Positions 6,608 to 53,578 of a stretch of DNA of 64,000 nt are shown here, piece after piece (position 1 is the first letter of the stretch; each line of letters starts with the position of its first letter). The stretch is taken from assembly GCA_046327735.1 (NCBI GenBank), contig JAXLXZ010000007.1, forward strand, positions 16,525 through 80,524, given 5' to 3'. The DNA is from Gemmatimonadales bacterium. Lineage in GTDB: Bacteria; Gemmatimonadota; Gemmatimonadetes; Gemmatimonadales; GWC2-71-9. The notes under the pieces were generated by a model, which worked only from the letters and a program-made list of their open reading frames with translations, searched no databases and was not told the DNA's origin. A program made the position numbers and the translations under genes.

Positions 6608-6788
6608 TGTCATCCCGGGGAGCGCAGGTTGTCATCCCAAGGAGCCCAGGTCGGTTGTCATCCCGAGGAGCGCAGGTCGGTTGTCATCCCGAGGAGCGCA
6701 GCGACGAGGGATCTAGCTCGCGGTACGGGAGGCACGCTTCAGGGCAACGTCCAGTAGATCCCTCGGGCCGCTGGCCCTCGGGATGACA
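6608..6788. repeat. REP-like hairpin element (family A) with 4 tandem left-arm copies
   Basis: TGTCATCCCGAGGAGCGCAGG(TCGGT) occurs four times (6608-6714). The right arm AGATCCCTCGGGCCGCTGGCCCTCGGGATGACA is at 6756-6788. Confidence 0.85.
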
Positions 6789-8157: not shown

Positions 8158-9653
8158 TCCGCCGCGCGATGGCTCCCGCACTGTTCGCGCTGGCCCTGGG
8201 CGCCGCGCCCCTCGCCGCCCAGCGCCCGGTGCTCGACACCCTGCCCCAGGCAACCCTCTCGCTCGACGACGCGCTCCGGCTCGCGCTTCCCGCCAGCGAG
8301 GCGGTGTCCCTCGCCCGCTCGGCGGTGCGCCGGGCCCAGGGCGACGTGAAGAAGGCGCGGAGTGAGTTCTTCCCGCAGATCACCGGGACGGCGTCCTACA
8401 CCCGCACCCTCAAGTCGCAGTTCAGCCGCTCGGCGGGCGGCAGCGGCACGACGGACACGACCCAGACCACCACCACGAGCTGCAACCGCTTCCGGGGCGA
8501 TCCCTCGGCGCCGGTAGGCACCCGGCTCGACTCGCTGGAGAGCGCGGTCGGGTGCCTCACCTCGCTCAACCCCTTCGCGGCCTTCGGCAACCTCCCCTTC
8601 GGCCAGAAGAACCAGTATCGCCTCGGCCTCGACGGGAGCCAGATCCTCTATGCCGGCGGCCGGGTGCGAGCCCAGACCCGCGCGGCCCAGGCGGCGGAGC
8701 GCTCGGCGAAGATCGGGCTCACCGCCCAGGAGGCGCAGCTCACGCTGGACGTCACCCAGGCCTACTACGATGCCGCGCTGGCCGACCAGCTGCTCCTGAT
8801 CGCGCGAGGCACGCTGCAGCTCGCCGACTCGACCTACCAGCAGACGGTGCTGGCGCGGAAGGTCGGCTCCCAGCCGGAGTTCGACGTGCTGCGGGCGCAG
8901 GTGTCGCGCGACAACGCCCGCACCGCCGCGATCCAGCGGGAGTCGGACCGGGAGATCGCCTTCCTCCGGCTCAAGCAGCTGCTCAACCTGCCGCTCGCGG
9001 GGCCGCTCACGCTCACCACGCCGGTGGTCGACAGCCTGCTGCCGGTGGTGCCGGCGCTCGACTCGCTGGTGAGCCGCCAGCTCGACACGGTGGTCGATGA
9101 GCGGGCCCCGGTGCGCCAGGCGCAGGCCTCGGTCGACGAACAGGAGCAGCGCTACCGGGTGGCGAAGGCGGAGCGCTATCCGGCGGTGACCCTCTCCTCG
9201 AGCTTTGCCCGGCTGGGCTACCCGAGCGACCTGCTGCCGTCGTGGAGCGACTTCGTCTCCGACTGGACGGTGGGCCTCACGGTGAAGGTGCCGCTCTTCA
9301 CCGGCGGCCGGATCGGCGGGAGCGTGCAGTCGGCGGGGACCAACGCGGAGGATGCGCGCATCCGGCTCCGCCAGGCCCGGGAGCGCGCGGCGGTCGACAC
9401 CCGTTCGGCGCTCGAGCGGCTCCGCGCGGCCGGCGCCGCGTGGGAGGCGAGCCAGGGCACCGTGGCGCAGGCGGAGAAGGCGTACGCCATCGCGGAGATC
9501 CGCTATCGCAACGGGATCAGCACCCAGACCGAGCTGGCCGACTCGCGGATCCTGCTGGAGCAGGCGCGGGCCAACCGGGCGACGGCGGGCCGCGACCTGC
9601 AGACGGCGAGGGTGCGGGTGGCGTTGCTGCCGGAGCTTCCGCTGGCGCAATAG
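8154..9653 (+). CDS. TolC-family outer membrane efflux protein
   Basis: ATGA overlap with the TetR stop. Signal peptide, and two OEP repeats (SEFFPQITGTASY..., ERYPAVTLSSSFARLGY). Confidence 0.9.
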   Translation: MIRRAMAPALFALALGAAPLAAQRPVLDTLPQATLSLDDALRLALPASEAVSLARSAVRRAQGDVKKARSEFFPQITGTASYTRTLKSQFSRSAGGSGTTDTTQTTTTSCNRFRGDPSAPVGTRLDSLESAVGCLTSLNPFAAFGNLPFGQKNQYRLGLDGSQILYAGGRVRAQTRAAQAAERSAKIGLTAQEAQLTLDVTQAYYDAALADQLLLIARGTLQLADSTYQQTVLARKVGSQPEFDVLRAQVSRDNARTAAIQRESDREIAFLRLKQLLNLPLAGPLTLTTPVVDSLLPVVPALDSLVSRQLDTVVDERAPVRQAQASVDEQEQRYRVAKAERYPAVTLSSSFARLGYPSDLLPSWSDFVSDWTVGLTVKVPLFTGGRIGGSVQSAGTNAEDARIRLRQARERAAVDTRSALERLRAAGAAWEASQGTVAQAEKAYAIAEIRYRNGISTQTELADSRILLEQARANRATAGRDLQTARVRVALLPELPLAQ

Positions 9654-9684
9654 TGGGCCAGTGGGCCAGTGGGCCAGTGGGCCA
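9653..9684. repeat. Tandem octamer (GTGGGCCA)x4
   Basis: Four perfect copies starting within the TolC stop codon. Confidence 0.9.
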
Positions 9685-9848
9685 GGCAAAGGTACGGGAG
9701 AGACGCGGCGGACCGGGGGATTCCCGGAGCGGAACGTATGCGCCCGCTCTTCCGCATGGACGCCAGCCCTTTCGCCGAGCGCATCAGTTCCGCGGAGGGG
9801 CTCCCCCGGGACGCCGCGCCGACCTTGGAGCGTAGAAAGCAAAAAGCA

Positions 9849-34301: not shown

Positions 34302-34419
34302 GGCCGTTAGCCATAAGCCGCAAGCCGTAAGGAATTGCACTCAGTTTGAGCTTCGTCTCAACTCACCCTCTTCATACCGCTCACCGCACGGCCAATGGCT
34401 TACGGCTTACGGCTTACGG

Positions 34420-34426
<7 letters not shown>
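34302..34426. repeat. Inverted arrays of GCCGTAA heptamers between ctaD and ctaE
   Basis: GCCGTTAGCCATAAGCCGCAAGCCGTAAGG (34303-34332) faces (GGCTTAC)x3 plus flanks (34392-34426). The inner small hairpin is TTGAG-N6-CTCAA. Confidence 0.85.
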
Positions 34427-36268: not shown

Positions 36269-37315
36269 TTACTTGTTGGCGCGCAGGTAGGCCACCACCG
36301 AGGCGACTTCCTCGTCGGTGAGCGGCGGCACGATCATCAGCACGCCCTGCTTCCAGGCCTGCGGATTCTTGATCCACTTGGCCAGGTTCTCGTCGGTATT
36401 CTTGAGGGTGCCGGCGGCGATGTAGCTCCGCGACCCCACGTGGTGCAGGTTCGGGCCGGTGAGCGGCAGCGCGGGCACCATCGAGTGACAGCCGGCACAG
36501 GCGCCCTTCCCCTTGAAGATCGCCTCGCCCGCCCTGGCCTGGGCGTTGGCCGCGCTGCTGTCGTTGGCGAAGGTGGGCGGTGCGTTGTTGAAGCTGGCGG
36601 CCCAGGCGTTGAACTCGGTCGAGTCCATCGACACGACCCGGTACGCCATCTTGCCGTGCTGGATCCCGCAGAACTCCACACACTGCGCCGGGAAGTTCCC
36701 CGTCACTTCGGCCTTGAACCAGAGGTTGTTGAACCGGTTGGGGAAGACGTCGCGCTTGCCGGCGAAGGCGGGGAGCCAGAAGGAGTGCAGCACGTCCTTG
36801 GTGGTCATCTCCAGGCTCACCGTGCGGCCCATCGGGATGCGGAGCTCGCCGGCGGTGGTGATGCCCAGCTGGGGATACTTGAACTCCCACCACCACTGGT
36901 GCCCGATCACCTCGACCTGGAGCGCGTCGGCGCCCGGCTTGACCGAGGTCTTGAAGATGGTGCGGACCGTCGGCACCGCGATCATCGCGAGGATGAACGC
37001 AGGGATGATGGTCCACACGATCTCGAGCGTGGTGTTGCCGTGGGTCTGCACCGGCTCCGCCGCGCCCGGGCGGTTGCGGAACTTCCACATCGCGAGGAGG
37101 AGCGCCCCCTCGACCAGCACGAACACCACCGTCGCGGCGATCAGCGTGAGCCGGAAGATGTGATCCGACTCGCGGGCGAAGTCAGCGCGAGGGTCCAGCG
37201 TCGTCTGGGGGTACTGAGCCGGCGAACAGGCGAGCAGCAACAGCGGGAGGAGGGCGAAAAGACAGGCCGGGACGTGGCGAAACAGCCGCCGGCGAGACGC
37301 CGTCTGGTCGGGCAT
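36269..37315 (-). CDS. ctaC: Cytochrome c oxidase subunit II with C-terminal cytochrome c domain (caa3-type)
   Basis: CuA site HSFWLP...CVEFCGIQHGKM. C-terminal heme motif CAGCHSM. Confidence 0.9.
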   Translation of the reverse strand: MPDQTASRRRLFRHVPACLFALLPLLLLACSPAQYPQTTLDPRADFARESDHIFRLTLIAATVVFVLVEGALLLAMWKFRNRPGAAEPVQTHGNTTLEIVWTIIPAFILAMIAVPTVRTIFKTSVKPGADALQVEVIGHQWWWEFKYPQLGITTAGELRIPMGRTVSLEMTTKDVLHSFWLPAFAGKRDVFPNRFNNLWFKAEVTGNFPAQCVEFCGIQHGKMAYRVVSMDSTEFNAWAASFNNAPPTFANDSSAANAQARAGEAIFKGKGACAGCHSMVPALPLTGPNLHHVGSRSYIAAGTLKNTDENLAKWIKNPQAWKQGVLMIVPPLTDEEVASVVAYLRANK

Positions 37316-37527: not shown

Positions 37528-38073
37528 ATGTCAACAGCGATTGACAGCCCCTCCGCGGCACTCGCCCCTCTACACTCTGAACTCTGGACAAACATGACGC
37601 CCGCCGAGCGCAGCGCTTTCATCGATCGGTACGCCAACGGCCCGACACTTCTTGAAGCGGCCTTCACAAAATTCCCCGTCGAGGCCCGCCAATGGCGCCC
37701 CGCCCCGGGAAAGTGGAGCGCTCACGAGATCATCGTGCACTGTGCCGACAGCGAAGCCAATGCCCACATGCGGATCCGTTTCCTCGTGACCGAGAAGGAA
37801 CCGCTCATCGTGGGGTACGACCAGGATGCCTGGGCCACCGACCAGGACTACCACGCCCACCCGCTCGACCTCGCCTTCGCCACCATCCGGGCGGTCCGTG
37901 CCAACACCGTCCCACTCCTGCGCCGCCTGACGGAGACCCAGTGGGCCAAGGTCGGCCGGCACACCGAGAGCGGGACCTACGGGGCGGAGAAGTGGCTGGC
38001 GACCTACGCCGAGCACCTCGAAGTGCACGTCCGACAACTGGCGCGAGTGCTGGGGGCGTGGGAGAAGCGGTGA
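37528..38073 (+). CDS. DinB-family protein
   Basis: WSAHEIIVHCADSE...YAEHLEVHVRQL, a DinB metal-binding His triad pattern. Confidence 0.8.
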   Translation: MSTAIDSPSAALAPLHSELWTNMTPAERSAFIDRYANGPTLLEAAFTKFPVEARQWRPAPGKWSAHEIIVHCADSEANAHMRIRFLVTEKEPLIVGYDQDAWATDQDYHAHPLDLAFATIRAVRANTVPLLRRLTETQWAKVGRHTESGTYGAEKWLATYAEHLEVHVRQLARVLGAWEKR

Positions 38074-38276
38074 GCGGTGAGCGGTGAACGGTGAGCGGTG
38101 AGCGGTGAGCGGTGAGCGGTGAGCGGTGAGCGGTGAGCGGACCGAAGGTACCGTCCACCGGTGTCATCCCGAGGAGCGTCAGCGACGAGGGATCTACTTG
38201 CCTCGACTAGATCCCTCGCTTCGCTCGGGATGACAGCCGTATCGCAGGTCCCGCTCACCGCTTACCGCTCACCGCC
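38067..38276. repeat. Composite palindromic element: (GCGGTGA)x10 - REP family A hairpin - (TCACCGC)x3.5
   Basis: Heptamer array 38067-38140. REP left arm 38162-38195, loop 38196-38208, right arm 38209-38235. Inverted heptamers 38251-38276. Confidence 0.9.
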
Positions 38277-38287
38277 CACGTAGTTTG

Positions 38288-38950
38288 TTACTTCACCACC
38301 ATGTCGAACGCCACCGGCTCCCCCGGCACCTCGAAGGAGTAGTGCCACCACTCCTGGTCGTACTGCTTGAACCCCTCCTTCTCCATCGCGGTCCGAAGCA
38401 GCTGCCGGTAGCGCATCGTGCGCCCGGTCGCATTGGCCCAGTGCGCCGATTCGGCGAAGGTGTCGTACGGCGTGCCCATGTCGACCTCGCGTCCGCCCAT
38501 GCTCCAGTCCACCAGCGTCAGGTCGACCGCGAGCCCCAGGTTGTGTCGGCTGTGGCTCGCGATGTACCCGTCCTGGATGAAGTGCATCTGGTCGGTGCGC
38601 CGGGCCCACTCCACCATGCCGAGGGTCGCGCGCACCGGGCGGTAGCCGTCGAAGACCTTGAGCCCCATCCCCCCGCTCCGCAGCCGCTTCTGTACCCGCG
38701 CCAGTGCCTCGGCCGCTTCCTTCCGGAGAAAGGCCCGGTTGGCGAGATAGCCCGGAAGGGGAGCGCCAGTGAAGTTGTTGGCGGTGGCGTACCGCACCTC
38801 CACCAGGATGGTGCTGTCCTTCGCCCGCACGTCGGCGAGGAACTCGTGGGCCAGCGAGTCGCTCGCGACCCGCGGGCCGTCATCGGTAGCCTGTGCCAGC
38901 GCCGGGTGCGCAGCGAGGCTGAGCGTGAGAAGCAGGACGGGAATTCTCAT
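38288..38950 (-). CDS. D-alanyl-D-alanine dipeptidase (VanX/DdpX, peptidase M15D), secreted
   Basis: Signal peptide. VEVRYATANNFTG, DGYRP, SRHNLGLAVDLTL and EWWHY motifs. Confidence 0.85.
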   Translation of the reverse strand: MRIPVLLLTLSLAAHPALAQATDDGPRVASDSLAHEFLADVRAKDSTILVEVRYATANNFTGAPLPGYLANRAFLRKEAAEALARVQKRLRSGGMGLKVFDGYRPVRATLGMVEWARRTDQMHFIQDGYIASHSRHNLGLAVDLTLVDWSMGGREVDMGTPYDTFAESAHWANATGRTMRYRQLLRTAMEKEGFKQYDQEWWHYSFEVPGEPVAFDMVVK

Positions 38951-43061: not shown

Positions 43062-44351
43062 ATGCGCATTCCATCGATGGTCCTGGCGGGAGCCCTGCTC
43101 GCCACTACCGCGCTCATGGCGCAGGGACCCGCACCACTCACGCTCGCGCAGGTCTATGACGGCGTGGCGGGGACGAGCCCGCGGCTCGCCGCCGCCCGCG
43201 CCCAGGTCGCCGCTGCCGATGCGCGGGTGCGGCCCGCGGGGAAGTGGCCCGATCCCGAGATCCAGCTCGGCCTGATGAACCGGAACCTTCCCGGCCTTGG
43301 CCTCCAGGACCCACTCGGCATGAACCAGATCCAGGTCATGCAGATGATCCCGACGGCGGGCAAGACCGGCCTGGCGGTGAAGGCCGCCCGGGCCGAGGCG
43401 AAGGCGGAAGCCGCACGCGCCGATGAGACCGGGTGGGAAGTGCGCTCACGGGCGGCGATGGTCTTCTACGACCTCTACCAGGCCGACGGCACGCTGGCCG
43501 AAATGCAGCGGGGCCGGCGGCTGCTCGAAGACATCAATCGCACCGCCTCGGCGATGTACGCCGAGGGCCAGGGGCCGCAGGTGGCGGCGCTCCGGGCCCA
43601 GATGGAGCTCGCCCGGATGGACGAAGACATCCTCCGCATGAGCGCGATGCGCGAGGGGATGGCGGCGCGGCTCAATGCCCTGCTGGCGCGGCCCTCGGAG
43701 GCGGCGCTGGGGTCGCCGGTGCTCCCTCGGATTCCCGACTCGCTCCCCTCGCGCGATTCACTCGAGGCGCTCGCGCTCGGGCGGCGGCCGATGCTGGCGG
43801 CGGGCGCGGCGAGGATCGAGGCGGCGAATGCCATGGCACGACGGGCGAGGCGGGAGATCTGGCCCGACGTGACCGTGGGCGTGATCTACGGCCAGCGGCC
43901 GATGGACGGTGGCACCGACCGGATGGCCAGCTTCATGCTCGGGTTCACCCTGCCGATTTCGGCCGGCGGCAAGCAGCGGCAGATGGCGCTCGAGGCCCGC
44001 GCCATGGAGGCGATGTCGGCGGCGGACCTGAGCGACATGCAGGCCGAGACCCGCGGGCGGATCGGCGAGGTGTACGCCGACCTGCAGCGGGCGCGCCGCC
44101 TCGCCGGTCTCTATCGCCGCACCCTCCTTCCCCAGGCCGACGCGGTCAGCGTGTCGGCGCTCACCGGCTACCGGAGCGGCTCGGTCGACTTCATGGCGCT
44201 GCTCGATGCCCAGATGGCGCTGCTCCGGGTCCGGCAGGACATCGTCCGGCTCGACGCCGAGGCCGGCAAGGCGGTCGCGGAACTGGAGATGCTCACCGCG
44301 TCGCCGCTGCTCGATCCCGCATCCACGAACAACGCAGGAGTGGCACGATGA
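43062..44351 (+). CDS. Outer membrane efflux protein (CusC/CzcC-like)
   Basis: Signal peptide and two OEP repeats. First gene of the OMF-MFP-RND operon. Confidence 0.9.
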   Translation: MRIPSMVLAGALLATTALMAQGPAPLTLAQVYDGVAGTSPRLAAARAQVAAADARVRPAGKWPDPEIQLGLMNRNLPGLGLQDPLGMNQIQVMQMIPTAGKTGLAVKAARAEAKAEAARADETGWEVRSRAAMVFYDLYQADGTLAEMQRGRRLLEDINRTASAMYAEGQGPQVAALRAQMELARMDEDILRMSAMREGMAARLNALLARPSEAALGSPVLPRIPDSLPSRDSLEALALGRRPMLAAGAARIEAANAMARRARREIWPDVTVGVIYGQRPMDGGTDRMASFMLGFTLPISAGGKQRQMALEARAMEAMSAADLSDMQAETRGRIGEVYADLQRARRLAGLYRRTLLPQADAVSVSALTGYRSGSVDFMALLDAQMALLRVRQDIVRLDAEAGKAVAELEMLTASPLLDPASTNNAGVAR

Positions 44352-45712
44352 ACACCAACCAGAACCGGGCGGTGGCCATCGCCCTGCGCGCGGGACTCGT
44401 GGTGCTGGCGGCGGGAGCGGCATGGTGGTTCACCCGCACCCCTGCCCCGGCGGCGGCTCCCTCGGGCCACAACCATGCCGCGATGGCCACGGCGGAGAAT
44501 GGCGGCGGGCCGGTGGCACTCGACGACGAGGAGCAGCGGCGGATCGGGGTCACGTTCGCCCCGGTGGAGTCGGGCGACCTCGGGCACAAGGTCCGGGTGG
44601 TAGCACAGGTCACCTGGGACGAGACCCGGGTGACGGCCATCTCGCCGCGGATCGAGGGGTGGGTCGACCGGCTGCTGGTGGACTTCACCGGCCGCACGGT
44701 GCGGGCGGGGGAGCCGCTGATGGCGGTGTACTCGCCGATGGTGGTCGCGACGGTGCAGGAGATCGGGATCGCGCGCCGGCTCGCGGGGGAAGTATCGGAG
44801 GGCAGCAGCGATGCCCGGACCCAGGCGGAAGGGCTGGTCCACTCCGGGCACCAGCGGCTCGCGGCCTGGGGCATCTCGGCGGCGGACATCGACCGGCTGG
44901 AGCAGGGTGGCGACGTGCGCACGGTGCTGCTGCGCTCGCCGGTGAACGGCGTGGTGGTCGAGAAGAACGTGGTGGCGGGCCAGCGGATCATGCCGGGCGA
45001 TGCGCTCTACCGCATCGCCGACCTCAGCACGGTCTGGCTCGAGGGCGAAGTCTTCGAGCAGGATCTCGCGTCGGCGAAGGTCGGGCTCCAGGTGACGGCG
45101 GAGTTCCAGGCGCTCCCGGGCGTCGAGCGCACCGGCCGGATCACCTACGTCTACCCGATGCTCAACCCGGAGACGCGGACCGGGAAGATCCGGGTCTCGC
45201 TTGCCAATCCGGGACTGCAACTCAAGCCGGGAATGTTCGCGACGATCCGCTTTACGACTCCGGCGCAGGCGGTGCTCTCGGTCCCCCGCTCGGCAGTGCT
45301 CTCGACCGGTGCCCGGAACCTCGTCTTCCTCAAGCGGGCCGACGGACGGTTCACGCCGACCGATGTGGTGCTGGGGCGGCAGAGCGAAGAGCGGATCGAG
45401 ATCCTGCGGGGGCTTTCGGCGGGCGACACGGTGGTGGCGTCGGCGACGTTCCTGCTCGATGCGGAGTCGAACCTGGGCACGCTGATGGGCGGGATGGGTG
45501 ACATGCCGGGGATGGACATGACGGCACCGGGCGGCGCCGGGCAAGGGAGTGCGCCGGCGACGAATCCCGCGCCGGCGGCGAAGGCGCCGGGCAAGGCCAC
45601 GACGAAGGCCAAGCCAGACACCGGCATGGGAGACATGCCCGGCATGGACATGCCGGGAATGGACATGTCGAAGCCGGACAGCAGCCAACATCAGCATCAG
45701 CACCAGGAGTAG
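44348..45712 (+). CDS. Heavy-metal efflux periplasmic adaptor (CusB/CzcB-like) with Met-rich C-terminal tail
   Basis: ATGA overlap with the OMF stop. HlyD-like core (LRSPVNGVVVEKNVVAGQRI). Tail GGMGDMPGMDM...GMGDMPGMDMPGMDM...QHQHQHQE. Confidence 0.9.
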   Translation: MNTNQNRAVAIALRAGLVVLAAGAAWWFTRTPAPAAAPSGHNHAAMATAENGGGPVALDDEEQRRIGVTFAPVESGDLGHKVRVVAQVTWDETRVTAISPRIEGWVDRLLVDFTGRTVRAGEPLMAVYSPMVVATVQEIGIARRLAGEVSEGSSDARTQAEGLVHSGHQRLAAWGISAADIDRLEQGGDVRTVLLRSPVNGVVVEKNVVAGQRIMPGDALYRIADLSTVWLEGEVFEQDLASAKVGLQVTAEFQALPGVERTGRITYVYPMLNPETRTGKIRVSLANPGLQLKPGMFATIRFTTPAQAVLSVPRSAVLSTGARNLVFLKRADGRFTPTDVVLGRQSEERIEILRGLSAGDTVVASATFLLDAESNLGTLMGGMGDMPGMDMTAPGGAGQGSAPATNPAPAAKAPGKATTKAKPDTGMGDMPGMDMPGMDMSKPDSSQHQHQHQE

Positions 45713-50164: not shown

Positions 50165-51811
50165 TCAGCGCCGGTACGGGTACCCCTTCTTCAAGAGCTG
50201 GTTCAGCCGCCGGTCGTGGCCGTAGATGTCACTGTATAGAAGCACGTCACCATTTTCCCTTGCGATGGCCGTGCCATAGACGATGAAGACCGGGATGGGG
50301 TGGGAGAGGTCTACCCGGATCGGGGTCTCCCCTTTCATGGCCTCCCGGATCCGGTCGTCGGTCCACTCGGGCTGGTCGCGCAAGACGAAGCGGGCCAAGG
50401 CGAAAGGGTCCCCCAGCCGGATGCAGCCGTGACTTGCGTCACGCTTGCTCCGCTCGAAGAGGGAGCGGGAGGGGGTATCGTGAAGGTAGACCTGGTAATC
50501 GTTCGGGAGCAGGAACTTCACCCCGCCCAGTGCATTGTGCGCCCCCGGGGTCTGCCGGACCCGGACGCCGTTGCCGATGGCGGCGATGTTCTCCGGGGTG
50601 CCGGGCACGACGTCGTTCCCGCGGATCAGCTCCATGTGGTTCTTCACGAGCCAGGCGGGGTTCTTCGTGGCGGCGGGCTTCACCTCGTCGGCGGCGATGG
50701 TCGGGGTGACTTCCCAGTGGGGCGCGAAGATCAGGTAGGTCATGTCCGCGGCGAAGACCGGGGTCTCGGTCTTGAAGGCGGTCCCGACCACCACGTTCAT
50801 GCGGAGCAGGCTCGACTCGTCGCTCTGGTCCCCGCTGAAGGCGTAGAGCCGGAAGGCGGGAATGTTCACGAAGATGGGCGGCGCGGAGAACTTCCGCGGC
50901 ATCCAGCGGAAGCGCTCGAGGGTCAGCTCCATCTGCCGGATGGCGCCCTCGAAGGGATGCTGCATGCGGGCACGGGTCGAGTCGCCGATCACGCCATCGG
51001 GGGTGAACCCCTGGCGCGCCTGGAAACGCTTGACGGCATCGACGAGCGTCCCGGCATAGGCCGTGTCGCCGGCCTGGGTCACCACCGAGTCGCGGTCGTC
51101 GCCCAGGAGCCGGAGGAGGCGGCGGAGTGCCGGTACCCCCTCGTACCGGTCGCCCGGCCGGAGCCGGCGCGGCATCGGGGGGAGCTGGACCAGGAGCGAG
51201 TCTTTCGCGAGCTCTCGATAGCGGACCAGTGCGCCGATCAGCAGGTAGTAATGCAGCAGCGACGGCTCGAGGGGCGAGAGCACGTTGTTGGGCTGCGCCG
51301 CGGTGCTGAGGCGGACGAGGGTGCTGTCGACGGTAAAGCTGTCGACCGGGAGCTTGAAGGTCGCGTGGACCGCGGCGGGATTCACCCGGCCCTTCCGGAG
51401 GGCATAGGCGAAGCGGCTGGCGGCGACCGAGAGGCCGACCTCGAGCCGGGCCACGCGGCTCGAGTCGCCGCTCAGGATCGGGCGGTCGGCCTCGGCCCGG
51501 AACCAGCCGGCATCGTAGTCGCGGGGGTCGAGGCCCCGGTTCGCGGCCTCGCCAAGGACCCGGATGAGGGCGCGCGCCGGGGCGGTGAGGGTGTCGTCGG
51601 AAAACCAGAGGGGCCGCCACCCGCGCGCGGCGTAGACCCGTTCGAGATCGGGCTGGACGTCGGTGAAGACCGGCCAGCGCAGTCCGGGGAGCCGCCCGGC
51701 CGCGACCAGGGTCTCGACCTGCTGCTCGACCGGGGTGGCCTGCGGGAGAAGCGGGTGCGTCGCCGGGAGCAGGGCCCCGGCGAGGGCAAGGACCGCGAGT
51801 GATCGGTGCAT
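50165..51811 (-). CDS. L,D-transpeptidase, YcbB/LdtD-like (PG-binding domain plus YkuD domain)
   Basis: PG-binding motif (AVKRFQARQGFTPDGVIG). Catalytic SHGCIRLGDPFALA. Confidence 0.85.
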   Translation of the reverse strand: MHRSLAVLALAGALLPATHPLLPQATPVEQQVETLVAAGRLPGLRWPVFTDVQPDLERVYAARGWRPLWFSDDTLTAPARALIRVLGEAANRGLDPRDYDAGWFRAEADRPILSGDSSRVARLEVGLSVAASRFAYALRKGRVNPAAVHATFKLPVDSFTVDSTLVRLSTAAQPNNVLSPLEPSLLHYYLLIGALVRYRELAKDSLLVQLPPMPRRLRPGDRYEGVPALRRLLRLLGDDRDSVVTQAGDTAYAGTLVDAVKRFQARQGFTPDGVIGDSTRARMQHPFEGAIRQMELTLERFRWMPRKFSAPPIFVNIPAFRLYAFSGDQSDESSLLRMNVVVGTAFKTETPVFAADMTYLIFAPHWEVTPTIAADEVKPAATKNPAWLVKNHMELIRGNDVVPGTPENIAAIGNGVRVRQTPGAHNALGGVKFLLPNDYQVYLHDTPSRSLFERSKRDASHGCIRLGDPFALARFVLRDQPEWTDDRIREAMKGETPIRVDLSHPIPVFIVYGTAIARENGDVLLYSDIYGHDRRLNQLLKKGYPYRR

Positions 51812-51813
51812 TG

Positions 51814-52111
51814 CCCGGAACTTAGCTCGGGGTTGCGGGACTTGCTAAGGTTCATGCCTGAGGCGGCAGATTTCAGGTCGCTGAGTTTGTCTCGTGGCTG
51901 AGCTGGGCAAACCGACAAACACAGATGTTCACAGATGGGACCGGATGTGTTCCTTGCGCGCGAACAGCTCCGTCGTGTCAGGTCGCTGAGATCGAGCGTG
52001 CTGCCAATTGCAAGTCAAACCGACCAGCGCAGCGAGCCAGCGCCGGATCTGTGCGGCACATGGATGGGATCCGGTCCCATCTGCAGTTATCTGTGTTAGT
52101 CAGTTGACCAA
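51814..52111. repeat. Copy 1 of tandem ~300-bp structured low-GC module (candidate ncRNA or MITE-like element)
   Basis: Near-identical to 52112-52411. Bipartite inverted repeat 51914-51947 / 52068-52101. Confidence 0.9.
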
Positions 52112-52411
52112 GCCCGTGACTTAGCTCGGGGTTGCGGAGACTTGCTAAGGTTCATGCCTGAGGCGGCAGATTTCAGGTCGCTGAGTTTGTCTCGTGGCTG
52201 AGCTGGGCAAACCGACTAACACAGATGTTCACAGATGGGACCGGATGTGTTCCTTGTGCGCGAACAGCTCCGTCGTGTCAGGTCGCTGAGATCAAGCACT
52301 TTGTTACCAACAAATCGAACCAACCAGCTCAGCGAGCCAGCGCCGGATCTGTGCGGTTCATGGATGGCATCCGGTCCCATCTGCAGTTATCTGTGTTAGT
52401 CAGTTGACCAA
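52112..52411. repeat. Copy 2 of tandem ~300-bp structured low-GC module
   Basis: Bipartite inverted repeat 52214-52247 / 52368-52401 (13 + 16 bp perfect, with a 5x5 bubble). Confidence 0.9.
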
Positions 52412-52429
52412 CCGGAGCGAGAGACAGAC

Positions 52430-53578
52430 TTGAGCCGCGACGAACCGTTGACCCCCGACGAGCTGGCAAGGTACAGCCGGCACCTGATCCTTCCCGATGT
52501 CGGGATGGAGGGGCAGCTGCGTCTCAAGGAATCGAGTGTGCTGCTGGTGGGCGCGGGGGGACTCGGGTCGCCGCTCGGGCTGTATCTCGCGGCTGCGGGC
52601 GTCGGGCGGATCGGGATCGTGGACTTCGACCGGGTGGATGCGTCGAACCTGCAGCGGCAGGTCATCCACCGTACCGCCGACATCGGCCGCCCCAAGCTCG
52701 ACTCCGCCCGCGACGCGATCGCCGCGCTCAACCCGCACGTGCGGGTCGAGCCCCACCCGGTGCGGCTCACCTCGGCGAACGCCCTCGAGATCGCGCGCGG
52801 CTACGACGTGGTGATCGACGGCAGCGACAACTTCCCCACCCGCTACCTGATCAACGACACCTGCGTGCTGCTGGGGAAGCCCTACGTCTATGGGAGCGTA
52901 TTCCGCTTCGAGGGCCAGGTCGCGATCCTCGCCACGAAGGATGGCCCCTGCTACCGTTGTCTCTTCCGGGAACCGCCGCCGCCCGGCATGGTGCCCGGCT
53001 GCGCCGAGGGCGGGGTGCTGGGCGTGCTGCCGGGACTGGTGGGGATCATCCAGGCAACCGAGGCGATCAAGCTCCTGCTGGGGATCGGGGAGACCCTCGC
53101 CGGCCGGCTGCTCCTGGTCGATGCGCTCACGATGCGGTTCAGGACCCTCACCCTCTCGCGCGACCCCGAGTGCCCCGCCTGCGGAACCCGGACCCTGACG
53201 GAACTCATCGATTACGAACGTTTCTGCGGACTCACCCCGGAGCCAACCAGCATGACTGACGGAGCAGACCTGACCCCGCCCGAACTGGCCGAGAAGCTGA
53301 AGCGCGGAGACGACTTCGACCTGATCGATGTGCGGGAGATGCACGAGTGGAACATGGGCCATATCGAAGGGGCCCGGCACATCCCGCTGGGAAGCCTGGC
53401 GCAGGCGACGGCGGAGCTGGACCCGTCCCGGGAAATCGTGGTCTACTGCAAGAGCGGCGGGCGGAGCGGGCGGGCCAAGGCCCACCTGGTGGCGAGCGGG
53501 TTCGGGCGGGTGCGGAACCTCCTGGGGGGGGTGCTTCGGTGGAGTGACGAGGTGGATCCGCGAATGCCGAAGTACTGA
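52430..53578 (+). CDS. moeB: Molybdopterin-synthase / sulfur-carrier adenylyltransferase with C-terminal rhodanese domain (MoeB/MoeZ-type)
   Basis: YSRHLILPDVG, GAGGLGSP, CxxC pairs (CYRC, CPAC). Rhodanese CKSGGRS active-site loop. Confidence 0.9.
   Translation: MSRDEPLTPDELARYSRHLILPDVGMEGQLRLKESSVLLVGAGGLGSPLGLYLAAAGVGRIGIVDFDRVDASNLQRQVIHRTADIGRPKLDSARDAIAALNPHVRVEPHPVRLTSANALEIARGYDVVIDGSDNFPTRYLINDTCVLLGKPYVYGSVFRFEGQVAILATKDGPCYRCLFREPPPPGMVPGCAEGGVLGVLPGLVGIIQATEAIKLLLGIGETLAGRLLLVDALTMRFRTLTLSRDPECPACGTRTLTELIDYERFCGLTPEPTSMTDGADLTPPELAEKLKRGDDFDLIDVREMHEWNMGHIEGARHIPLGSLAQATAELDPSREIVVYCKSGGRSGRAKAHLVASGFGRVRNLLGGVLRWSDEVDPRMPKY

Follow-up and report, generated by a model that had tools for sequence, protein, structure and literature searches.

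Two tandem units of 300 nt separate the divergent genes ldt and moeZ in a soil Gemmatimonadales bacterium. They are nearly identical over most of their length and differ strongly over 36 nt at the tip of a long hairpin. How could adjacent copies agree so closely around a segment in which they disagree so much? A preliminary description of the same 64-kb stretch of DNA (hereafter the window) likened the 36-nt core to a specificity cassette, such as a guide loop or a recognition site, swapped into a conserved scaffold. We suggest instead, with a probability of roughly 55%, that the core is the apex of a hairpin resembling repetitive extragenic palindromes (REPs) and miniature inverted-repeat transposable elements (MITEs), which lies in a duplicated moeZ leader and became mosaic through concerted evolution. 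Loci fetched for comparison (161 loci, 1.28 Mb) are designated by L-numbers.

A divergent apex in two tandem units

Tandem Repeats Finder (TRF) reports a single array at 51813-52411 with a period of 300, 2.0 copies and 92% matches. The two units occupy the whole gap between the genes, within the presumed 5' leader of moeZ. Each unit holds a short hairpin (hp2) followed by a long one (hp3), with the core at the apex of hp3.

51813-52112, + strand: tandem unit 1 (copy 1), starting 1 nt past the ldt start codon (TRF, alignment, direct repeats)
52113-52412, + strand: tandem unit 2 (copy 2), ending 18 nt before the TTG start of moeZ; both units also in L166
51843-51910, + strand: hp2 copy 1, a 68-nt hairpin with a good minimum free energy (MFE) fold on the + strand only
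52143-52210, + strand: hp2 copy 2, 100% identical to hp2 copy 1
51909-52106, unstranded: hp3 copy 1, an imperfect palindrome or long hairpin of ~198 nt (folding, inverted repeats, consensus structure)
52209-52406, unstranded: hp3 copy 2 (folding, inverted repeats, consensus structure)
51994-52029, unstranded: core (apex) of hp3 copy 1, GAGCGTGCTGCCAATTGCAAGTCAAACCGACCAGCG; 58% GC, without a strong terminal hairpin
52294-52329, unstranded: core (apex) of hp3 copy 2, AAGCACTTTGTTACCAACAAATCGAACCAACCAGCT; 42% GC, carrying a TTTGTT-ACC-AACAAA mini-hairpin
51978-51990 (copy 2: 52278-52290), + strand: 13-mer TCAGGTCGCTGAG, the 5' side of the apex-closing helix (pattern search)
52028-52038 (CGCAGCGAGCC, copy 1) and 52328-52338 (CTCAGCGAGCC, copy 2), + strand: 3' side of the apex-closing helix (consensus pairs)

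An ungapped comparison at an offset of 300 over 51840-52111 yields 20 mismatches, 15 of them at 51994-52029 and five outside, and the first 26 nt of the unit add two further substitutions and one 1-nt indel. The preliminary description had placed 15 mismatches in exactly this interval. It was also right that differences elsewhere are few, though not in putting them at about six, as there are seven substitutions plus one indel. Divergence reaches 42% within the core and ~2.7% elsewhere in the unit, and in none of 200,000 permutations did any 36-nt window gather at least 15 of the 22 differences (p<5e-6). Uniform drift after one duplication cannot produce two such values side by side, and the earlier view that the pattern is not neutral drift holds in this respect.

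The core mismatches do not all represent independent changes. A gapped alignment replaces the 15 substitutions with eight substitutions, one 3-nt insertion and one 3-nt deletion, so that a register shift accounts for part of the count. Misalignment across indels had been raised as a possible explanation; it explains that part and leaves the clustering standing, since even with gaps ~10 events fall in the 36-nt core against eight in the remaining ~264 nt. Homology between the two cores is clear (z=6.5 relative to shuffles), with a Jukes-Cantor (JC) distance of 0.61 ungapped and 0.29 gapped. A simple inversion, or an inverton, was rejected because the apex region aligns with a score of -1 in reverse complement and of 44 in the forward direction. 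Changes between G/C and A/T make up 10 of the 15, all toward A/T in copy 2, and the changes are not strand-coordinated. Both apexes contain a small palindrome of their own: in copy 1 it is CAATTG/TTGCAA, in copy 2 TTTGTT-N3-AACAAA. The copy-2 mini-hairpin is present as first described, and so is the helix that closes below the core (GGTCGCTGAG / CTCAGCGA(G)CC), whose one mismatch in copy 1 is the G at 52029.

The duplication is real and not an assembly artefact. An independent NCBI contig from a metagenome-assembled genome (MAG), L166, contains the identical duplication, including the unit junction GACCAA/GCCCGTGAC, with the two cores ordered as in the window. Its MoeZ is 99.7% identical to that of the window, and both of its cores are identical to the window cores. 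In the Logan contigs L090 and L091 (with ldt) and L001 (with moeZ), the contig end lies 30 nt away from the last copy-specific base or from the first base past the array. As 30 nt equals k-1 for an assumed Logan k-mer size of 31, such ends are what one expects if both contexts occur in the reads.

Copies, strains and species compared

Two loci retrieved from the 90% MoeZ cluster, L164 and L165, encode MoeZ proteins 94% identical to that of the window, and each has only one unit, its hp3 in the corresponding position. Their divergence from the window at four-fold sites is 0.38-0.58. Identities by segment are as follows.

hp2: copy 1 against copy 2, 100%; window copy 2 against L164, 51%; against L165, 35%
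hp3 arms: copy 1 against copy 2, 97-100%; window copy 2 against L164, 82%; against L165, 76-78%
hp3 interior: copy 1 against copy 2, 98% (5') and 90% (3'); copy 2 against L164, 58-64%; against L165, 65-70%
Apex: copy 1 against copy 2, 63%; window copy 2 against L164, 50%; against L165, 34% (31 gap columns)

The apex and hp2 are the least conserved segments among orthologs, and the length of the apex varies too, with ~30 nt more in L165. Because hp2 is 100% identical between the window copies and only 35-51% identical between species, the identity of the scaffold reflects recency or gene conversion and not constraint. The idea of a conserved scaffold fails at this point, as both hp2 and the hp3 interior diverge among orthologs whose MoeZ is 94% identical. 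Variation confined to the core is likewise true between the window copies and false among the orthologs. Near-identity of tandem copies is no evidence of constraint without a check of orthologs. The JC distance between the two apexes matches the neutral divergence between species, and for neither core does L164 or L165 offer a clearly closer match than the other core does. The copy-2 apex weakly shares a TTGTT...ACAA motif with the apexes of L164 and L165 (z about 2), and an ancestral status of the copy-2 apex, judged from these two loci, has marginal support (z about 2).

The strain comparison shows how stable the two cores are. The window and L166 differ at four-fold sites by K4 = 0.03, and both apexes are identical at 38/38 positions. 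All 15 core differences and the five scaffold substitutions within the reach of L166 (which starts after ~38 nt of unit 1) are fixed paralog differences in both strains. Alignment column 69 behaves differently, with A in both window copies and G in both L166 copies; L091 also has G. This single-nucleotide polymorphism (SNP) is a signature of gene conversion between the copies after the strains split.

The hairpin is conserved as a structure. A structural alignment of window copy 1, window copy 2, L164 and L165 gives a consensus hairpin for hp3 of 58 pairs, in which 92.6% of the cells are paired and the apex is unpaired, whereas the paired fraction falls to 30-42% in slid controls. Compensatory double changes occur in seven hp3 pairs, a number matched by 3/500 shuffles. 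The basal arms are conserved in sequence beyond pairing alone, and the inner helices are conserved in structure. The apex-closing helix is kept in the orthologs (hp3 alignment columns 87-92 / 165-170) with one compensatory pair, U-A to C-G, in L164. The hp3 arms (window 51911-51949 and 52066-52106) consist of CAGATG / CAGATG / CGGATG phased every 11 nt. The closing-helix 13-mer TCAGGTCGCTGAG also lies in the hp2 loop (51873-51885; copy 2, 52173-52185), and the pattern search found four matches against 0.8 expected by chance. As TCAGGTCGCTGAG occurs twice per unit, the 3' strand CTCAGCGAGCC could pair with either occurrence and alternative structures are possible. The 13-mer itself can form a mini-hairpin, UCAG-GUCG-CUGA.

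Both hairpins carry hints of the transcribed strand. The MFE of hp2 is -28.4 kcal/mol on the + strand (7 G-U of 27 pairs) against -13.2 on the - strand, and this G-U-rich folding bias toward the + strand recurs in the L164 and L165 counterparts. The bias suggests transcription in the moeZ direction. For hp3 the two strands fold equally well, at -95 to -100 kcal/mol. By our own count, hp3 has about 16 G-U cells against seven A-C cells on the + strand, and this excess mildly favours a + strand RNA.

The units are placed between two genes whose synteny is kept in relatives, and each unit begins with a promoter-like palindrome.

50165-51811, - strand: ldt, an L,D-transpeptidase gene of the YkuD family (Pfam Scaffold + PG_binding_1 + YkuD)
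51821-51849, unstranded: promoter-like palindrome P1, CTTAGC-N17-GCTAAG, abutting the ldt ATG and conserved in relatives
52120-52149, unstranded: promoter-like palindrome P2, which duplicates P1 and has a spacer of 18 nt (alignment)
52430-53578, + strand: moeZ/moeB-like sulfur-transfer gene, ThiF adenylyltransferase plus rhodanese (Pfam ThiF 2e-83, Rhodanese 4e-20)

P1 would represent overlapping divergent promoters, with the -35 element of each strand complementary to the -10 element of the other. The putative hexamers are TTAGCT (-35) and TAAGGT (-10) toward moeZ, and TTAGCA (-35) and TAAGTT (-10) toward ldt. The position of the putative ldt-ward promoter would leave ldt nearly leaderless. 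The motif (A/C)TTAGC...GCTAAnnTTCA lies beside the ldt ATG in seven relatives (L003, L083, L086, L092, L164, L165 and L166), with single-base variants in L083 and L165, and some of these seven lack hp2 and hp3. L089 has only a diverged palindrome, TATAGCC...GGCTATCGTTC, and L087 and L095 have none. The TTAGC-N17/18-GCTAA palindrome stands 7-11 nt from the ldt start codon, making ldt putatively leaderless, as moeZ would also be in L083. The duplication provides each of ldt and moeZ with two such promoter-like palindromes.

The ldt protein search recovered one close genome relative, L003, with 79% identity and the two genes in the same arrangement. An hp3-type arm (CCACAGATGAGCATAGATCAGAACGGATG) can be recognised in the L003 spacer, and after it comes a run of N precisely where the rest is expected. 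This run (L003 3782-3881, exactly 100 N), in the closest genome relative, is the only one among the 161 fetched loci. The repeat or hairpin itself probably produced a scaffold gap here, although the run could also be a deliberate mask of the collection. Relatives with 74-82% ldt identity have short spacers and lack hp3. In L083, L086, L089 and L092, hp3 is absent from ldt-moeZ intergenic regions of 52-138 nt, and the flanks of these relatives are too diverged to define the exact empty site. L092, the closest relative without hp3, keeps TTTGTCTCG..GCTG from the 3' half of hp2 (L092 1985-2060, - strand, against window 51880-51925), followed by the octamer AACTGACT, which the hp3 terminus carries unchanged as its outermost bases. 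The octamer could be a leftover single arm or a pre-insertion site.

A metagenome scan with the arm pattern common to the window and L003 recovered a second location, L102. Here a NUDIX gene, whose homologs are annotated as Gemmatimonadales, is followed downstream by hp3. The element has the same termini as in the window (AACTGACTAACACAGATG...CATCTGTGTTAGTCAGTT) and a different, self-complementary interior. The arms AAC(C/T)GACTAACACAGATG... / ...CATCTGTGTTAGTCAGTT occur in both window copies and in L102, and arms with one or two substitutions are found in L164 (AACTGAGTAAC...) and L165 (...CACCGAT; ...CATCGGTG...). hp3 thus appears to be a dispersed, modular hairpin element of this order, with two loci across Gemmatimonadales contigs (the moeZ leader and the site downstream of the NUDIX gene). 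No further copy was found in the window or in the 1.28 Mb of fetched loci, and the window holds no ortholog of the L102 NUDIX locus.

Origins of the apex divergence

We suggest that the core is the apical segment of an intergenic REP/MITE-like hairpin that is under little constraint at its tip. Within a small clade of Gemmatimonadales, hp3 lies between the promoter-like palindrome shared by ldt and moeZ and the moeZ start, where it is most likely transcribed within a long structured moeZ 5' leader. In this species, the 300-bp block of promoter-like palindrome, hp2 and hp3 was tandemly duplicated, and gene conversion would homogenise the two copies. The apex may escape because a heteroduplex with ~40% mismatch is plausibly rejected, so that conversion tracts would end on either side. 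The divergence of the tip would either be older than the last homogenisation or stem from a patch taken from a diverged copy, and would now resist conversion. The outcome would be an old divergence of the apex that mimics a swapped cassette on a conserved scaffold, and the locus would be a clear example of concerted evolution imitating such an arrangement. As for a role of hp3, our working guess is a structured element of the moeZ leader, with leader structure, a processing site and a protein-binding platform as candidates. A covarying hairpin of ~200 nt stably placed in the moeZ leader would make a candidate cis-regulatory or processing element for an enzyme that activates sulfur carriers.

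Several points weigh against concerted evolution of a MITE-like hairpin. The evidence for gene conversion is one shared SNP, and the reading leaves the initial apex divergence to be accounted for, either by an old duplication or by a diverged allele brought in from outside. MITE-like is a label for architecture alone, as no cognate transposase was found within ~14 kb and no direct repeat indicative of a target-site duplication is evident at the hp3 termini of the window or L102. A generic sigma-70 consensus scan did not call P1 as a promoter. Both cores measure 36 nt although the apex differs in length between species, which could hint at constraint. The weak sharing of TTGTT...ACAA between the copy-2 apex and L164/L165 means that the apex may not be fully neutral. 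The perfect conservation of both cores in two strains has no power here, as only ~2 differences would be expected.

The same mosaic might arise without repeated conversion, through the one-off replacement of a patch. A recent duplication would have been followed by a single event overwriting one apex, probably that of copy 1, by short-patch ectopic gene conversion or template switching from a diverged hp3-family element or from an imported allele of a relative. We regard this as unlikely, yet it accounts for several observations. Elements of the hp3 family exist at non-homologous Gemmatimonadales loci (L102), and the cores are homologous while having diverged as much as orthologs of other species. 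The scaffold differences at 51957, 52057-58 and 52068 lie within ~40 nt of the core, which fits a tract of ~110 nt, and the gapped core alignment requires paired 3-nt indels. However, neither the window nor the fetched loci contain a donor, and no closer affinity of either core to L164 or L165 points to one. Any donor that shared the scaffold yet differed at the apex would moreover call for the same explanation.

An interpretation closer to the preliminary description takes the two apexes as functional specificity loops. Each unit would act either as a structured RNA or as a palindrome in the DNA. The apical 36 nt would set an antisense or kissing-loop target, or form an operator for a different dimeric protein, and selection would oppose conversion. 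Such selection would explain why the apexes are distinct while the flanks are homogenised, and why both versions are identical in two strains. The equal core lengths, the small palindrome in each apex, the conserved and covarying closing helix and the promoter-like palindrome of each unit all agree with it. The sister species, however, have one unit with an unrelated apex of other length, and the copy-1 apex lacks a mini-hairpin and has a weakened closing helix, which looks like decay. No intrinsic terminator was detected after hp3. Rfam 15 gave no match at the gathering score in the window and nothing relevant at E<=10 in 51700-52500. Sequences identical or complementary to the cores, which the cassette reading would lead one to expect as targets, do not exceed chance in the window: the longest exact matches are 9-10 nt against a shuffled-core mean of 10-11 nt, and duplex energies stay inside the range of shuffled cores.

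Effector or partner genes are also missing from the neighbourhood. Within ~14 kb, a scan of the larger open reading frames (ORFs) supported by third-position GC content (GC3), with several small ORFs on the ldt side left out, detected no Cas, TnpB/IscB, IS110-type recombinase, reverse transcriptase (RT), integrase, transposase or REP-associated tyrosine transposase (RAYT) gene. Neighbours with Pfam matches are AcrB, OEP, peptidase M15, Ldt, MoeZ, Amt, TonB_C, a methyltransferase, ADH and an FMO-like protein, and two ORFs at 44293-45666 have no Pfam match. Taken together, these results make specificity loops rather improbable, and the cassette of the preliminary description is left without an effector, an Rfam family or an in-window target.

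Other candidate functions were rejected. RNA-guided systems (CRISPR, TnpB/IscB omega-RNA, IS110 bridge RNA, tandem interspaced guide RNA (TIGR) arrays) lack an adjacent effector or recombinase in the scanned region. A diversity-generating retroelement does not fit, as copy 1 has G, T, C and A at the positions that differ, copy 2 has A at only 6/15 of them, and no RT was found nearby. A small protein is contradicted by the 60-aa ORF across hp3, which is found in both copies, has no Shine-Dalgarno sequence and is interrupted after 10 codons in L102. None of the known operators built from phased repeats (DnaA, Pho and TorR boxes, CsrA GGA motifs, E. coli REP) appears to fit the arm motif. BLASTN of the unit against plasmids and phages returned no match, viral-contig pattern scans returned chance matches only, a metagenome scan with the closing-helix pattern found nothing, and literature searches by sequence words and topic found nothing relevant to the unit or the arm motif.

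A bolder proposal, and a long shot, is that hp3 belongs to an undescribed class of structured elements in which the arms dock a widely conserved protein and the apical ~36 nt form a free specificity module. If so, two apexes kept distinct by selection despite conversion would amount to two versions of one regulatory RNA or DNA element at the ldt/moeZ promoter, each with its own address.

Local mutation and faulty assembly carry very little weight, even jointly. Hypermutation of a single-stranded tip, extruded as a hairpin or cruciform, might proceed by deamination, error-prone repair or quasi-palindrome template switching. The differences do sit exactly at the unpaired tip, and the 10/15 changes between G/C and A/T all run toward A/T in copy 2. 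A 16-fold rate would nevertheless predict ~30 differences at K4 = 0.03, and since both cores are unchanged between the strains (38/38), ongoing hypermutation is excluded. The changes lack strand coordination, and a single template switch fails because reverse-complementing either arm of the copy-2 mini-hairpin does not yield a copy-1 arm. Hypermutation is thus highly improbable. A false tandem repeat joined from two strain alleles of a single-copy region is barely credible: the source of the window is MAG-like, assemblies of short reads break off here (L001, L090, L091 and L166 start or end inside the repeat) and the homologous L003 site has its 100-N gap, but L166 holds the novel unit junction with both cores in the same order, and the Logan ends place both contexts, at the copy-specific bases and the 3' array junction, in the reads.

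Known systems and related repeats

Several known systems share part of the architecture of hp3. REPs, bacterial interspersed mosaic elements (BIMEs) and REPINs, which are REP-based hairpins, are repetitive extragenic palindromes mobilised by RAYT transposases, with REPs measuring 20-40 nt and REPINs about 100 nt. Like them, hp3 is intergenic, forms a long hairpin on either strand, combines conserved arms with a variable spacer and occupies unrelated sites in a lineage. Unlike them, hp3 spans ~200 nt, its arms are 10-11-nt phased CAGATG arrays and not a GTAG-headed palindrome, no RAYT gene was seen nearby, and the 64 kb contain one hp3 locus. The Correia elements or Neisseria miniature insertion sequences (NEMIS) of Neisseria, and the enterobacterial repetitive intergenic consensus (ERIC) sequences or intergenic repeat units (IRUs) of enterobacteria, are bacterial MITEs of 100-200 bp with terminal inverted repeats. 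hp3 resembles these in lying between a putative promoter and a gene, in a presumed 5' leader, and in its presence or absence among close relatives. It differs in having neither a recognisable target-site duplication (window, L102) nor an identified parent insertion sequence or transposase, and the compensatory changes in its inner helices suggest selection on structure beyond the ends.

Duplicated tuf genes and rRNA operons are the classic cases of concerted evolution by gene conversion. The window units match these in having paralogs far closer than orthologs, a strain SNP in both copies and mosaic tracts. In contrast to tuf and rRNA operons, the tract that is not homogenised is a 36-nt non-coding island at a hairpin apex, and there is one conversion-type site. 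OmrA and OmrB are adjacent small RNA paralogs with near-identical ends and a divergent centre. The adjacency and near-identity of the units, their central difference and the promoter-like element of each are similar, whereas the absence of a detected intrinsic terminator, the placement of 300-nt units directly in the moeZ leader and the single unit in sister species are not; nor were Hfq-type features or targets identified for the window units.

Integron attC sites span a known range of 57-141 nt and phased CAGATG arrays are not known in them. hp3 shares with attC sites and clusters of attC sites lacking integron-integrases (CALIN) an imperfect palindrome with conserved outer boxes and a variable centre, and GACTAAC...GTTAGTC resembles RYYYAAC...GTTRRRY with one deviation. 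An attC site was rejected on length (~200 nt) and context. There are no cassette ORFs, the ORFs scanned include no integrase or other tyrosine recombinase, and the boundaries of the window repeat are not at G/TT.

The arm motif extends beyond the clade and across phyla. The arm-motif scan also recovered 16 unrelated metagenome contigs with a GC content of 48-66% and intergenic arrays. The array in these contigs is near-invariant, (C)CACAGATG(A/G)ACACAGATAA(A/G)AGCGGATGAACAC(A/G)GAT, with a 10-nt phase. Since the fourth and fifth phased units lie outside the search pattern, they provide an unbiased confirmation of the arrays. Across L096-L112, the arm-motif loci carry (C)CACAGATGAACACAGATAAGAGCGGATGAACACAGAT with a phase of 10-11 nt, for example at L100 375-460, L098 1443-1550 (-), in L108 and at L104 171-210. 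Some arrays are solo and others form inverted pairs around 16-110 nt (L098, L100, L106, L108). Pfam searches of ORFs near the arrays in L103, L109 and L102 found no transposase and no common neighbour. Rfam gave no match in the 15 of 17 arm-motif loci scanned (L106 and L110 were left out), and no description of the arrays was found in the literature. The ORF just downstream of the L104 array encodes a putative GxxExxY-type protein. If a protein does read these arrays, they would constitute a broad and undescribed class of repeats.

A weaker relative of the arm array occurs in an Anabaena plasmid (L162 1500-1545). In L106 (563-590 - and 3729-3756 +), the arrays lie in a contig that folds back on itself almost perfectly, so that the same ORFs appear as mirrored and frameshifted copies, possibly including a kbl-like gene as judged by eye. 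A transposon with inverted ends was considered for L106 and rejected, as the contig is probably a chimeric fold-back assembly; L106 was disregarded.

The window contains further repeats. A second dispersed repeat, GTCATCCCGAGGAGCGCAG(C)GACGAGGGATCT, forms an intergenic 26-nt tandem array of 3.8 copies at 6608-6701 and also an intergenic inverted pair that folds into a hairpin at 38162-38235 (region 38160-38240). Nearby, a perfect heptamer microsatellite, (AGCGGTG) x 10.7, occupies non-coding DNA at 38066-38140 between the predicted ORFs 36269-37315 and 38288-38950. Complementary units of the CACCGCT type lie ~120 nt downstream of the microsatellite, flanking the GTCATCCCGAG hairpin, with 38255-38280 on the opposite strand. 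Other short arrays are located at 9652-9685 (AGTGGGCC x 4.2) and 34397-34421.

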